NCBI GenBank assembly: GCA_010031635.1
Contig: RGZI01000001.1
Location: forward strand, 1-61,886
Reading direction: 5' to 3'
Origin: Actinomycetota bacterium
GTDB lineage: Bacteria > Actinomycetota > Actinomycetes > Nanopelagicales > Nanopelagicaceae
Length of the DNA stretch: 61,886 bases
Positions 18,042 to 50,674 of the stretch are shown here, piece by piece (position 1 is the first letter of the stretch; every line of letters starts with the position of its first letter). Made by a program: the position numbers and the translations under genes. The notes under the pieces were generated by a model. The model did no database searches. It was not told the origin of the DNA and saw nothing but the letters and a program-made list of their open reading frames with translations.

Positions 18042-18160
18042 GGCCAGATTACTCTGGATTTACCCCTCAATTGGCTGGAAGCCCCTCTTACCGGCTACCC
18101 TTACGCCGCTGCAGAAGTTCTGAGCAGCGTAAGAAATCAGTTGAAATTTAGGAGGCGATG

Positions 18161-18349
18161 ATGGCTGCCAAGTGCGACATCTGTAACAAAGGGCCAATCT
18201 GGGGAAATTCAATCTCCCACTCACATCGTCGTACCCGTCGTCGTTGGAATCCAAATATCCAGCGCGTTCGCACCATGATCAATGGCGTAACCCCAAAGCG
18301 TTTAAATGTTTGCGCTGCTTGCATGAAAGCCGGAAAAGTTACCCGTTAA
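18161..18349 (+). CDS. rpmB: 50S ribosomal protein L28 (Cys-containing form)
   Basis: [12 protein letters not shown]...[16 protein letters not shown]...CAAC. AGGAGG lies 5 nt upstream of the second ATG. Confidence 0.93.
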
Positions 18350-19497: not shown

Positions 19498-19734
19498 ATG
19501 TCAGTTCAGTCATACATTCTGATTCAAACTGAGGTCGGAAAAGCTGCTGGCGTTGCTAAAGCAGTTGGCGCAATTCCTGGTGTGAGTTTGGCTCAAGGTG
19601 TTGGTGGTCCATACGATGTAATCATGCGCGCCGAATCTGCATCCATGGAGGAGTTTGGTCGCTTAATTCTCACCAAAGTTCAAGCAGTCCCTGGGATCAC
19701 TCGCACTCTTACCTGTCCAGTAGTTAACGAGTAA
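19498..19734 (+). CDS. Small Lrp/AsnC ligand-binding-domain protein
   Basis: 78-aa ORF (YILIQTEVGK...VPGITRTLTCPVV) typical of stand-alone AsnC-type RAM domains. GAAGGAG RBS present. Confidence 0.75.
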   Translation: MSVQSYILIQTEVGKAAGVAKAVGAIPGVSLAQGVGGPYDVIMRAESASMEEFGRLILTKVQAVPGITRTLTCPVVNE

Positions 19735-29582: not shown

Positions 29583-29593
29583 ATTAATCTGTG

Positions 29594-29666
29594 TAGCCCC
29601 GAAGGGATTCGAACCCTCGTAGCTGGCTTGAGAAGCCAGAGTCCTAGGCCGCTAGACGACGGGGCC
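29594..29666 (-). tRNA. tRNA-Glu (anticodon CTC), CCA not encoded
   Basis: GGCCCCGTCGTCTAGCGGCCTAGGAC-T-CTGGC-TTCTCAA-GCCAG-CTAC-GAGGGTTCGAATCCCTT-CGGGGCT-A folds as a cloverleaf. Confidence 0.93.
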
Positions 29667-29700
29667 AAACTTATTTAGTTATCTAGATAAGTATAGATCG

Positions 29701-29772
29701 CTGGGGTACCAGGACTCGAACCTAGACTTACTGAACCAGAATCAGCAGGGCTGCCAATTACCCCATACCCCA
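29701..29772 (-). tRNA. tRNA-Gln (anticodon CTG)
   Basis: TGGGGTATGGGGTAATTGGCAGCCC-T-GCTGA-TTCTGGT-TCAGT-AAGT-CTAGGTTCGAGTCCTGG-TACCCCA-G. Confidence 0.93.
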
Positions 29773-35252: not shown

Positions 35253-35597
35253 CTAGCCCGGAGGCCACGTAAAGGTACGGCCACCCATGAGATGTAAGTG
35301 AGCGTGGAAAACGGTCTGACCGGCCTCGGCGCCAGTATTGAAAGTTAAGCGATAGCCAGATAAACCTTTTTCTTGCGCCAGCTCGCCGGCTTTAGCCAAG
35401 AGTTTGGCGGCGGTTTGTGGATCCTTTTGGGCGACTTCAGCGCCATTTTCATAATGTTTTTTCGGTATTAATAAAAGATGCGTGGGGGCTTGAGGGGCGA
35501 TATCGGCGATCACAAAAATATCTTGATCTTCAAATATTTTTACTACCGGGATTTCACTTTTAGAAAATTTGCAAAATAAACACTCTTGTTCACTCAA
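35253..35597 (-). CDS. HIT (histidine triad) family protein
   Basis: HAHLHLMGG triad. Confidence 0.9.
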   Translation of the reverse strand: MSEQECLFCKFSKSEIPVVKIFEDQDIFVIADIAPQAPTHLLLIPKKHYENGAEVAQKDPQTAAKLLAKAGELAQEKGLSGYRLTFNTGAEAGQTVFHAHLHLMGGRTFTWPPG

Positions 35598-35624: not shown

Positions 35625-36344
35625 TTACCATTTCCCTGTTCGCGACATTACAACCGATGTAGCAGCAGCGCCGGCATTTGCAGCACGCAACACGCTCTCA
35701 CCAAGTCTTACTACTTTGGCACCGGCAGCTACAAAGGTATTAACTTCAAATTCGCTTAAGCCACCTTCTGGTCCAACAATCAAAAATATATCTACTGCTT
35801 GGTTTATCTCGATTTGGGTCAAACGATTTTCAGCTGCTTCATGTAATACAAAGACATTTTCAAAATCTTTAATCTTAGAGATCAAATTTTCAGTTGAAAG
35901 AGTATTAGCGATTACTGGAATTCTTGTTCTGCGAGATTGCCGCGAACTTTCGCGTGCAGTATTTTGCCATTTACTTAAGCTTTTATTATCTATTTTTCCA
36001 ATACTATGTTGACTCTGCCAAGGAATTATTTCATCAATTCCGACTTGAGTTAAAAAATCTATGGCTTCTTTATTGGCATCATTTTTTAAGATTGCCTGTA
36101 CCGCAACCACTCGTTGTTTTGGGGCTGGATCAAATCCACAAGTAGAAATTTCAACTGTAAAGCTTTTCTTGCCTATCTGATTGACTTTGCCAATCGCCCA
36201 GTTTCCGGCGCCATCACTAATTTTAATTTCTTCTGCTTCTTTTAACCGAAGGACATTCACTCCATGGTGAGCTTCGTCGCCATCAACTTCAATTTGATTG
36301 GCGGAAAAGCTAGTACCTTCAGACACGAAGAATGTAGTGAGCAT
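35625..36344 (-). CDS. rsmE: 16S rRNA (uracil1498-N3)-methyltransferase
   Basis: PUA-like N-terminus and SPOUT motif VGPEGGLSEFE. The ATG overlaps the stop of the dnaJ C-terminal frame (TGATG). Confidence 0.85.
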   Translation of the reverse strand: MLTTFFVSEGTSFSANQIEVDGDEAHHGVNVLRLKEAEEIKISDGAGNWAIGKVNQIGKKSFTVEISTCGFDPAPKQRVVAVQAILKNDANKEAIDFLTQVGIDEIIPWQSQHSIGKIDNKSLSKWQNTARESSRQSRRTRIPVIANTLSTENLISKIKDFENVFVLHEAAENRLTQIEINQAVDIFLIVGPEGGLSEFEVNTFVAAGAKVVRLGESVLRAANAGAAATSVVMSRTGKW

Positions 36345-36589
36345 CAACGGCCAAGTGCATCTTTAAGGCGCCCGAACAAACCATTTTCGCGATTATCTAC
36401 TTTGGCACTCTCTGCAGAATCGCCACGCGAATTCGCAAAGTTACGCATCAACTCTTCTTCTGATTTGTTTAACTTTGCCGGGATCACTACTTCAACATGT
36501 ACAAATAATTCACCACGATGTGAACTTCTTAATTTAGTTACCCCGCGATTTTTAATTGGAATTACAGTTCCGCTTTGAGTGCCAGCTTT
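36344..36589 (-). other. dnaJ: -1-frame continuation encoding the DnaJ C-terminus (end of CTD II plus tail)
   Basis: My translation is [52 protein letters not shown]...GLFGRLKDALGR*. There is no start codon in this frame upstream of the homologous part. Confidence 0.85.
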
Positions 36590-37308
36590 AAATCTCCAGC
36601 AGGTCCACCTCCAGGTCCAACTTCCCCTTGCCCGCTCATCTGAATTCGATTTCCAGTTTCAACTCCTGCTGGAATCTGCACATTTAATGTTCTCCGTGAT
36701 CGCACCCGTCCGTCGCCAGCACATTCACGGCATGGGTCGGTAATGACACTTCCAAATCCTTGGCAATTAGCGCATGGTCGTGAACTCATTACTTGTCCAA
36801 GAACCGAACGAGTTACTTGCTGGACTTCTCCGCGGCCCTGGCAGATCGGGCATTTACTTGGCTGAGTTGAACCAGAAGAACCAGATCCCGTGCATTTCGT
36901 ACAAACCAAAGCTGTTTCTACTGTGATCTCTCGGTCACTTCCAAAAGTAGCTTCCATCAAATCAATTTCAATTCGGATTAACGCATCCTGGCCTCTGCGC
37001 ACACGTGGACGGGGACCTCTTGAACCGCCACCGCCAAAAAAGGCATCCATGATGTCGCCAAAACCAAAGCCGCCACCAGCGCCGCCAGCTCCAAAATTAA
37101 AACCTTGTCCCCCACGGTCAAAATTAGAACGCTTATTCGGATCGCTCAAAACTTCATAAGCTTCAGTTACCTCTTTAAAACGATTTTGCGCAACTGGGTC
37201 TGGATTTACATCTGGATGTAATTCGCGAGCAAGTTTGCGATAAGCACGTTTAATCTCATCACTTGATGCATTTCTTTCCACACCAAGCACATCATAAAAA
37301 TCAGCCAT
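36562..37308 (-). CDS. dnaJ: Chaperone DnaJ, zero-frame product (J domain, G/F region, four CxxCxGxG fingers, start of CTD I), prematurely terminated
   Basis: DFYDVLGV...HPD, a GGFGFG region, and [32 protein letters not shown]. Homology runs to [13 protein letters not shown] and then KLALKAEL*. Confidence 0.9.
36586..36592 (-). promoter_or_regulatory. Candidate -1 slippery heptamer T_TTA_AAG at the dnaJ frame junction
   Basis: The zero-frame codons gaT TTA AAG fit the X_XXY_YYZ pattern, and the junction of the two homologous frames falls on it. Confidence 0.4.
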
Positions 37309-38324
37309 TAAAATCCTTCTTCTAGGAAGCGACTTACATATCTAGCTACTGCGCTTACCGCACTCATTGACCCGGAATAATCCATTCGAGTTGGCCCAAT
37401 AATTCCTAAGTTGGCTACTCGTTCTCCTTCAGGGCCATAGCCCGAAGTCACGATACTTGTTGATTGCAGATTGGCATTATCTTGCTCGTGACCAATTTTA
37501 ACTTGAGTTCCATCTGCAGTTTCACCAAGCAGATGTAGCAATACAACCTGTTCTTCTAGCGCTTCTAATATTGGGTGAAAGCTTGTTGGGAAATCACTTG
37601 GAATTCTTGCCAAATTTGCAGTTCCTGAAACTATGACTTTTTCTTCACTTCTTTCAATTGCCATTTCCAGAATTACATTTACCACTGAAGTTACGTTTGC
37701 TCTCTCGATGGCTTCAAATTTCTCGGTAAAACTTTTTAAAGCGTTTGGTATTTGATTTAATTTCTCTCCAGCGCAAATAAGATTAAGTTGGCTTCTAAGT
37801 TTCGCTACATTTTCTTCATTCATTTGATTTGCTAATTCAACAATTCGTTGTTCTACGCGTCCGGTATCGGTAATCAAAACAATCATTAGGCGCATTGGTG
37901 TCAAAGGTAAAATTTCTATATGTCTCACCGCAGATTTTGAAAGAGAAGGATACTGAACAATTGCTACTTGCTTTGTCACTTGCGCGAGCAATCGAACTGT
38001 TCGATTAACTACATCATCAAGATCTACCGCACCTTCTAAAAAGTGATCGATCGCCCGTCGCTCAGGTGCCGATAAAGGCTTGACTGTCGATATCCGATCC
38101 ACAAAAACTCGATATCCAAGATCGGTTGGTATCCGCCCAGCACTTGTGTGTGGCTGCGAAATTAAGCCCTCTTCTTCAAGAAGTGCCATCTCGTTGCGAA
38201 TTGTTGCCGGTGAAATCCCTAATGAATGTCGCGCAGCTAAAACTTTTGATCCAACAGGTTCATTTGTGGCCACATAATCATCAACGATCGCTCGTAATAT
38301 CTCGAGACGGCGATCGGCGATCAT
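37308..38324 (-). CDS. hrcA: Heat-inducible transcription repressor HrcA
   Basis: N-terminal winged helix [28 protein letters not shown] lies upstream and dnaJ downstream. Confidence 0.93.
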
Positions 38325-38364: not shown

Positions 38365-38391
38365 TTGGCACTTAACTTGGTCGAGTGCCAA
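38365..38391. promoter_or_regulatory. CIRCE operator (HrcA binding site)
   Basis: TTGGCACTT-N9-GAGTGCCAA compared with consensus TTAGCACTC-N9-GAGTGCTAA. It lies 40 nt upstream of the hrcA ATG. Confidence 0.85.
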
Positions 38392-38785: not shown

Positions 38786-39961
38786 CTAGTTGTCTAATGC
38801 TCTAACTATTTGATCTGCGAGTAAACGGCCGGTTATCGACAATTTAAGTTCCCCTGATTGCCATGCCTTCTCATCTAAGTGGCCTTGAGAAAGATAAGAA
38901 TTCAGTATCGCTAATTCAGGCTCAGTAAAAAAATCTAAAGACAAGCCAGATGAGAGTCTAATCCGCAACAAAATCTCTTCAAACCGCAACTGCTCTGTAG
39001 TCAGCTCTTCCTTCTCCAACATCGGTGATTCACCGCTACTAAGTTTTGAAATATATGTAGTGGGATGTTTTACATTCCACCATCTAACTCCCTGCACATG
39101 GGAATGTGCACCCGCACCGATTCCCCACCAATCATTGCTGTGCCAATAAGCAATATTGTGGCGAGCTTCCCCGCCTTTCAAAGACCAATTACTTACCTCA
39201 TACCAATTCATGCCAGCTTTATTTGCCAACTCATCTACTAATAAATACTTATCAGCGGTTTCATCATCTGGTGGCATCACTACATCTCCGCGTCGAACTT
39301 GTGCGCCCAACTTGGTTCCCTCTTCGACAATCAACGCGTATGCACTTAAGTGATCAATCGGTAGCGACAATGCTGCAGTAACGCTTTCCTTCCAATCATC
39401 AATTGATTCACCCGGTACTCCGTAAATTAAATCAAGGGATATATGTTCAAATCCAGCATCAATCGCCTCATGAACTACTTCGCTAACTCGAGCTGGATTA
39501 TGGGTTCGATCTAAAGTCGCCAAGACATGTGTTTTCGCAGATTGCATTCCAAAGGAGACACGATTTATCCCCGACACTCTTAAGTTCTTTAAATCAACTG
39601 CGCTAACTGAATCTGGATTAGCTTCTGTAGTGATTTCAATATCTTCAGAGAAGCCGAATTTCTCTTTTAACTCATCAAGCACGCGAGCTAAGTCAGCGGA
39701 TGGAAGCAAAGTTGGAGTGCCTCCACCAAAAAATATAGTGTCGATTGAACGCACTTGCTCTTTGCTCTGAAGAAAATCAAATGCTTGATTTATTTCGATA
39801 ATTGCTGCATCTACATAACCTTGTGAAACTTTGGCGACGTTAGCTTCGCCTTCTTTTAATTCACTTGGGGTGTAAGTATTGAAATCGCAGTAACCACATC
39901 TTCTTATGCAGTATGGGATGTGAATATAAAAAGAGAGCGGCTTCAAAGTAGCTTTTGCCAC
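38786..39961 (-). CDS. hemW: Radical SAM heme chaperone HemW (HemN-like)
   Basis: CIRRCGYCDF CxxxCxxC cluster and HemN_C-like end. It sits downstream of lepA, the usual position. Confidence 0.9.
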   Translation of the reverse strand: MAKATLKPLSFYIHIPYCIRRCGYCDFNTYTPSELKEGEANVAKVSQGYVDAAIIEINQAFDFLQSKEQVRSIDTIFFGGGTPTLLPSADLARVLDELKEKFGFSEDIEITTEANPDSVSAVDLKNLRVSGINRVSFGMQSAKTHVLATLDRTHNPARVSEVVHEAIDAGFEHISLDLIYGVPGESIDDWKESVTAALSLPIDHLSAYALIVEEGTKLGAQVRRGDVVMPPDDETADKYLLVDELANKAGMNWYEVSNWSLKGGEARHNIAYWHSNDWWGIGAGAHSHVQGVRWWNVKHPTTYISKLSSGESPMLEKEELTTEQLRFEEILLRIRLSSGLSLDFFTEPELAILNSYLSQGHLDEKAWQSGELKLSITGRLLADQIVRALDN

Positions 39962-50543: not shown

Positions 50544-50601
50544 CGTTAACCACCCACCAATTTCCGAGTTAATTTAAATCAATGCGGATCCGAATTGAGT
50601 G

Positions 50602-50674
50602 TGGAGCTGAGGGGACTTGAACCCCTGACCCCCTGCATGCCATGCAGGTGCGCTACCAGCTGCGCCACAGCCCC
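50602..50674 (-). tRNA. tRNA-Ala (anticodon GGC), CCA not encoded
   Basis: GGGGCTG...CCTGC-ATGGCAT-GCAGG...CAGCTCC-A with the G3:U70 identity pair. Confidence 0.93.

Follow-up and report, generated by a model that had tools for sequence, protein, structure and literature searches.

The dnaJ gene next to hrcA in contig RGZI01000001.1 of a Nanopelagicaceae actinobacterium (assembly GCA_010031635.1; the window is the whole stretch analysed, 61,886 nucleotides (nt) long) lacks exactly 148 nt when compared with 12 related loci; 49 codons are gone, those of residues 241-289 in the intact protein, together with one further nucleotide. We consider it probable, if well short of certain, that a single genuine deletion, private to this genome and recent, has turned the gene into a nascent pseudogene. 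The lesion leaves dnaJ split over two reading frames that meet on the heptamer T_TTA_AAG. The original prediction, made from the window alone, had offered three explanations for this arrangement: recent decay of the gene, an artefact of assembly, or programmed frameshifting that yields a shortened DnaJ. Decay and artefact both remain tenable, in the form of one private 148-nt deletion without any other change in dnaJ; the frameshifting reading does not. The lesion is thus either a very young pseudogene of the ordinary sort or an artefact of sequencing.

The first part of the gene is authentic. The zero-frame open reading frame (ORF; 36562-37308, minus strand) encodes 248 amino acids (aa) and begins with a J domain (PF00226, residues 3-64, E = 4.9e-27) that has its HPD motif at residues 31-33, followed by a G/F stretch and a zinc-finger domain (PF00684, residues 136-200, E = 4.8e-15) whose four CxxCxGxG fingers were read directly. 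The N-terminal hallmarks of a type I (class A) DnaJ, namely a J domain with HPD, a G/F region and four zinc-finger motifs, are all present, and Pfam matches and direct reading bear out both these domains and the KLALKAEL ending that had been described for this frame. In tblastn the authentic part matches the intact conspecific DnaJ with 100% identity over residues 1-225, and its nucleotides equal those of two conspecific contigs, L029 and L030. A complete set of C-terminal domains I and II (CTD I and CTD II) and C-terminal tail is not found in one frame: the zero-frame ORF covers only positions 3-71 of the 152 in the DnaJ_C profile, the -1 frame supplies 116-152, and nothing corresponds to 72-115. 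The -1 frame is open from 36658 and holds, from 36592 on, the DnaJ C-terminus, as had been proposed; it matches residues 289-370 of intact DnaJ, has 0 mismatches to L029 and L030, and ends in GLFGRLKDALGR before its stop. Its first start codon is a GTG at 36487, in agreement with the claim that no start precedes the homologous part, and the native TGA (36346-36344) does overlap the rsmE ATG (TGATG).

The closest relatives carry the gene intact. Exact matches to the HrcA protein of the window occur on six independent contigs, from three ENA metagenome assemblies, the NCBI metagenome-assembled genome (MAG) GCA_037140535.1 and two JGI metagenomes. On either side of the junction all six have 99.4-99.95% identity to the window. 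A 370-aa dnaJ adjoins hrcA in five of them; in the sixth (L028) the dnaJ call of 365 aa is cut by the contig end only, and the deletion site is still spanned. The BLAST segments on either side of the junction overlap by 3 nt, and 148 nt are extra in each of the six. With these 148 nt taken out, L029 and L030 equal the window dnaJ at 965 of 965 nt, and a single nucleotide differs in each of L027, L028 and L031. The alignment with conspecifics contains no point substitution in dnaJ that is private to the window, hence no decay signal (dN/dS) to analyse. Because the rest of dnaJ is identical to intact conspecific alleles, the deletion would be extremely young.

Likewise, the gene is unbroken in more distant relatives. 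A search for HrcA with one genome per species yielded six loci that extend through dnaJ (L002-L005, L008 and L026; ~96% HrcA identity), all from Nanopelagicaceae/acI-type freshwater actinobacterial MAGs of ~88% nucleotide identity to the window. BLASTN matches each of them in two segments that meet at the junction, where the relative is longer by 148 bases, and a MAFFT alignment displays an unbroken frame, GDLYVEIVE...ETLDGESKVDIKAGTQSG, and no heptamer. Furthermore, all the members read that span the site in a 283-member cluster of DnaJ at 90% identity have GDLYVEIVE...VDIKAGTQSG. DnaJ proteins of relatives that are not cut off measure ~362-379 aa, and the intact conspecific DnaJ is a type I protein that aligns end to end with a solved full-length DnaJ (6jzb, E = 1.3e-81). 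A continuous in-frame dnaJ in close relatives, an observation that the original prediction had set against itself, is what both groups show, six near-identical loci and six at ~88%, none with the heptamer. An intact allele in the closest relatives and a frame-destroying lesion, the two marks of a deletion pseudogene, are found together here. A further locus, L001 (CAYZBP010000094.1), is titled 'uncultured Bifidobacterium sp.'; its hrcA-dnaJ region has ~88% DNA identity and 96% HrcA identity, like the Nanopelagicaceae MAGs, and its taxonomic label is probably wrong, or its bin contaminated.

At the site of the lesion the intact alleles read ...GCT GGA GAT TTA/TAC GTA GAA...GTT GAT ATT A/AA GCT GGC ACT... 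(slashes mark the endpoints; site sequence GATTTATACGTAG), with a left flank GGAGATTTA/TACG... and a right flank ...GATATTA/AAGCTGG. The window has ...GCT GGA GAT TTA AAG CTG GCA..., the joined sequence being GGAGATTTAAAGCTGG, and the direct repeat shared by the endpoints is no longer than TTA, 3 nt. Slipped replication or illegitimate recombination at this TTA would remove codons 241-289 and one base. As 148 is not a multiple of three, eight wrong codons and a stop would follow, giving the 248-aa fragment, and what remains of CTD II would, with the C-terminal tail, stay untranslated in the -1 frame. The absence of about 50 residues and the change of frame, listed as two features by the original prediction, are both present and amount to one 148-nt event. 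The window dnaJ shares with microhomology-deletion pseudogenes its intact conspecific orthologues, one internal deletion of a length not divisible by three, the 3-nt microhomology, an early stop past the junction and an undegraded downstream frame, and nothing sets it apart from that class.

Two other routes to the present sequence were rejected. A two-event model, in which an in-frame deletion of 147 nt was joined by a separate 1-nt deletion, is conceivable from the ~88% relatives; it was dropped because the intact allele of the >99% relatives already has the flanks TTA and AAAGCT, so that one 148-nt deletion suffices. A deletion between two imperfect 14-nt repeats, TTACATATGGCACT and TTAAAGCTGGCACT, does not fit either, the left endpoint lying 55 nt upstream of the first copy. 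These imperfect direct repeats of the intact allele (L029:2472-2485 and 2563-2576) are read in two frames (DDLHMALT and IKAGTQ), and because of them the window tail GDL-KLALK (36562-36588) superficially resembles the DnaJ motif GDDLHMAL.

We examined the lost segment in an AlphaFold2 model of an intact protein (P0001, representative of the 90%-identity cluster with the conspecific DnaJ) and in the 40-sequence alignment of relatives on which the model was based. The model has a mean predicted local distance difference test score of 82.5, with block means of ~87-94 around the lost segment. In the model residues 241-289 take in strands 240-246, 253-255 and 258-266, helix 267-272 and strands 274-280 and 283-289, and so make up the last part of CTD I and the first part of CTD II. 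Seven of these residues are invariant in the alignment (E243, R254, L259, H260, A270, G273 and G283) and nine more are nearly invariant. A fusion that skips residues 241-289 would be out of register with the internal CTD I/CTD II repeat and is unlikely to fold. The 248-aa product keeps the J domain, the G/F region and the zinc fingers, breaks off inside the CTD I sandwich and ends in eight nonsense residues; it is expected to be non-functional as a chaperone. Moreover, the premature stop now stands 214 nt upstream of rsmE, so rsmE would probably lose its translational coupling, and polarity may affect it as well as the genes downstream.

Support for a lesion in the organism comes from the remaining window, which is densely packed with intact ORFs, contains no other broken gene and does not look like a generally error-ridden assembly. 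Collapse by a k-mer assembler is unlikely, because there is no repeat longer than 3 nt at the endpoints. The loss may be tolerated owing to a second dnaJ in a dnaK-grpE-dnaJ operon elsewhere in the genome; within the window there is neither a second dnaJ nor a dnaK operon. In Mycobacterium smegmatis DnaJ1 and DnaJ2 are each dispensable and jointly essential (PMC8092207), and genuine loss would be tolerable by the same token if a dnaK-linked dnaJ exists. Three points weigh against a genuine deletion. One that arose during amplification, in making the library or at the assembly stage would look just like one present in the organism. The absence of the junction elsewhere fits a private mutation and an artefact alike, and the scan for it had a weak control. 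Should a second dnaJ be lacking, it would be less plausible for so streamlined a genome to have lost a conserved co-chaperone.

An artefact is the chief rival, less probable in our judgement yet a serious possibility. It could be, for example, a template-switch chimera from whole-genome or PCR amplification, an assembly mis-join, or a minority variant brought in by bubble resolution, and the true genome would carry a 370-aa dnaJ. The lesion is unique among seven near-identical sequences, comes with zero accompanying substitutions and affects a strongly conserved housekeeping gene, all of which would suit such an origin. Polymerases that switch templates in vitro likewise typically leave short microhomology at the junction. 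Among 153 billion gene positions there was no exact match to the 248-aa product, so the product is absent from public gene calls, and the junction was seen nowhere else. A 24-mer across it had 0 matches in a metagenome contig collection, a negative of little weight because the collection samples the species too thinly: the intact left-junction control matched only once, in a more divergent relative (L033). Against an artefact stand the want of a flanking repeat long enough to mislead a k-mer assembler and the absence of any other broken gene from the remaining window, and a genuine recent deletion predicts the same sequence pattern.

If the deletion is genuine, the 248-aa protein might in principle be retained as a functional minimal J-protein, since its J domain with HPD, its G/F region and all four zinc-finger motifs are intact. 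N-terminal DnaJ fragments can still stimulate the ATPase of DnaK. We regard this as highly improbable: such a form occurs in no relative, those not cut off being of full length, and the event is too young for visible selection. Furthermore, the cut through the CTD I beta-sandwich and the eight nonsense residues predict misfolding, and the dimerisation tail is lost.

The heptamer at the junction deserves a separate account. As predicted, T_TTA_AAG lies at 36592-36586, exactly where the frames switch and in zero-frame phase, and a -1 slip on it regains the native frame and yields GDL-K-AGTQSG. Its two parts come from different places in the intact allele: TTTA belongs to Asp239-Leu240 (GAT TTA), and AAG to Lys290-Ala291 (AAA GCT), 148 nt further on. 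TTTAAAG is absent from this position in 12 of 12 related loci (six at >99.4% and six at ~88% nucleotide identity), and neither these loci nor the cluster members read conserve a heptamer with a two-frame architecture. Being made by a private deletion and absent from all 12, it cannot have been selected. The heptamer is also statistically unremarkable in the window, which has 44% G+C: in-frame T_TTA_AAG occurs 11 times in 19,365 ORF codons, tying with A_AAT_TTA as the commonest X_XXY_YYZ motif, and in-frame X_XXY_YYZ with Y = A/T occurs 94 times in the same codons. Judged from these alignments, it is an accidental product of the junction that would have no evolutionary history as a recoding signal.

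Nor do the surroundings of the heptamer point to recoding. For the 86 nt after it the minimum free energy is -12.5 kcal/mol; shuffled versions average -12.72 (z = 0.09), and 100 of 200 fold as well, so no stimulatory structure is apparent downstream. GGAGG and GGTGG do lie 15 and 12 nt upstream, within the 6-17 nt spacing at which sequences like a Shine-Dalgarno (SD) motif were treated as stimulatory by Sharma et al. 2014 (PMC4066793). The original prediction had placed the GGAGG correctly and likened it to the stimulator of dnaX. Both motifs are codons of the conserved PGGGP motif. Because these codons are kept in all intact relatives, their presence is no signal of selection for frameshifting. 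The site resembles the -1 sites of dnaX and the IS3 family in its X_XXY_YYZ heptamer ending in A_AAG, in phase, and in the purine-rich SD-like sequence upstream. It differs from them in being unconserved, made by a deletion and without a downstream stem-loop or pseudoknot; moreover, its orthologues are single ORFs, and the trans-frame product would be internally deleted and probably misfolded, not a designed isoform.

Trace adventitious slippage at the heptamer is conceivable, with no evidence of a selected signal. In E. coli U_UU.A_AA.G gives >0.1% frameshifting without stimulators, and the best V_VVA_AAG motifs reach ~0.3% (PMC4066793). Cases are recognised in which low-level 'corrective' frameshifting makes up for an indel (Atkins et al. 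2016, PMC5009743), and the G-run mutants of herpesvirus thymidine kinase (PMC5009743) resemble the present case in that an indel changes the frame on a shift-prone sequence and a trace product is conceivable. The known products are essentially full-length, whereas the window product would lack 49 core residues, and the recoding review of Atkins et al. (PMC5009743) mentions no dnaJ case. A genuine deletion might nevertheless suppress itself: SD-aided -1 slips on the heptamer that it created would supply traces of a DnaJ without residues 241-289, bring ribosomes to the native TGATG and keep some coupling to rsmE. We hold this to be very unlikely; if it were true, the coupling would more plausibly be useful than the protein. 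Least probable of all is adventitious or programmed -1 frameshifting that yields a 321-aa internally deleted DnaJ beside the 248-aa product and possibly restores termination-reinitiation to rsmE. Correct phase, the SD-like motifs, the unstimulated rate and the recognised corrective cases speak for it; it is contradicted, and its programmed form refuted, by continuous genes in the relatives, a common, junction-made heptamer, PGGGP-coding SD-like bases, a structureless downstream region, an unstimulated efficiency of only ~0.1-0.3%, the lack of a dnaJ case in the recoding review, and a product short of five beta-strands and a helix at the CTD I/CTD II boundary with their seven invariant residues.

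Probable pseudogene or artefact, the lesion has little biological weight: at most, one sampled freshwater acI-type (Nanopelagicaceae) lineage has just lost its HrcA-regulated dnaJ copy. The case is a caution that an out-of-frame deletion can create a textbook slippery heptamer at its own junction, and comparison with conspecific contigs resolves such cases fast. Until reads confirm the lesion, annotation should mark the gene as a dnaJ pseudogene with a frameshift and an internal deletion, not as a recoding candidate.

Features of the hrcA-dnaJ locus, in window coordinates.
Feature	Position	Strand	Remarks
T_TTA_AAG heptamer	36586..36592	-	X_XXY_YYZ phase of the zero frame; by-product of the junction
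Deletion junction	36589..36591	-	TTA, 3-nt microhomology common to both ends; lost stretch TACGTAGAA...GTTGATATTA
dnaJ, authentic 5' part, codons 1-240	36589..37308	-	J domain, G/F region, zinc-finger domain and first part of CTD I; ends ...GPAGDL
Out-of-frame tail KLALKAEL and TAA stop	36562..36588	-	End of the 248-aa product, eight wrong codons
dnaJ, stranded 3' part, codons 290-370	36344..36589	-	-1 frame; rest of CTD II, C-terminal tail and native TGA
hrcA, heat-inducible transcription repressor	37308..38324	-	Intact, 338 aa; Pfam PF01628, E = 1.5e-56; identical protein on six other contigs
CIRCE-type operator TTGGCACTC-N9-AAGTGCCAA	38365..38391	-	Upstream of hrcA; 8-nt perfect inverted repeat
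rsmE, 16S rRNA methyltransferase	35625..36344	-	Pfam PF04452/PF20260; gene call of 239 aa in conspecific contigs

The locus itself is an ordinary actinobacterial hrcA-dnaJ2 operon with an operator of the CIRCE type (controlling inverted repeat of chaperone expression), and its dnaJ is a copy of the actinobacterial dnaJ2 type. Genes on the minus strand run lepA, hemW, a small DoxX-like membrane ORF, hrcA, dnaJ, rsmE, HIT, phoH and ybeY, an order that matches the CIRCE/HrcA-controlled hrcA-dnaJ2 locus of Mycobacterium, which continues with rsmE, phoH and ybeY. The window shares with actinobacterial hrcA-dnaJ2 loci the CIRCE upstream of hrcA and a type I conspecific DnaJ, and differs in that its dnaJ copy is interrupted. 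The two components of an HrcA/CIRCE heat-shock operon are present, the HrcA gene and a repeat like TTAGCACTC-N9-GAGTGCTAA in the promoter region. No other site in the window matches TTRGCACTC-N9-RAGTGCYAA, with 0 matches expected in shuffles, and the repeat is the predicted HrcA binding site of the hrcA-dnaJ operon. A scan of the operon for promoters and terminators gave nothing above shuffle expectation.

Base 38378, in the 9-nt spacer of the CIRCE, is A in the window and G in six of six conspecific contigs. It is the window's only private point difference across the stretch covered by all six, and both private changes, this single-nucleotide difference and the dnaJ deletion, sit in one operon. 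The rsmE ATG has no obvious SD sequence ahead of it. An exact look-up of a 240-aa rsmE product with a TTG start gave no match; in public calls the product probably starts at the ATG, with 239 aa. Downstream, the longest ORFs of phoH and of the HIT-family gene have 32 nt in common (35253-35284), and the phoH start is uncertain because conspecific public calls vary (330 versus 344 aa).

In hemW, which two or three of the conspecific contigs cover, the differences of the window from them are clustered at 38867-39182, between flanks that are ~99.7% identical. Four differences private to the window fall within 42 nt (39006-39047), and there are more patches at 38867-38888 and 39095-39182; they look like short recombination tracts or population microdiversity. 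Over the whole window 52 of the 55 ORFs of at least 90 aa are on the minus strand, and coding density is ~94% before small genes are counted. Apparent gaps contain small genes on the plus strand, rpmB (L28) at 18158-18349 and a 78-aa ACT/Lrp-like ORF at 19498-19734. Two of the larger intergenic gaps hold minus-strand tRNA genes, a tRNA-Glu(CTC) and tRNA-Gln(CTG) pair at 29593-29772 and a tRNA-Ala(GGC) at 50601-50674.

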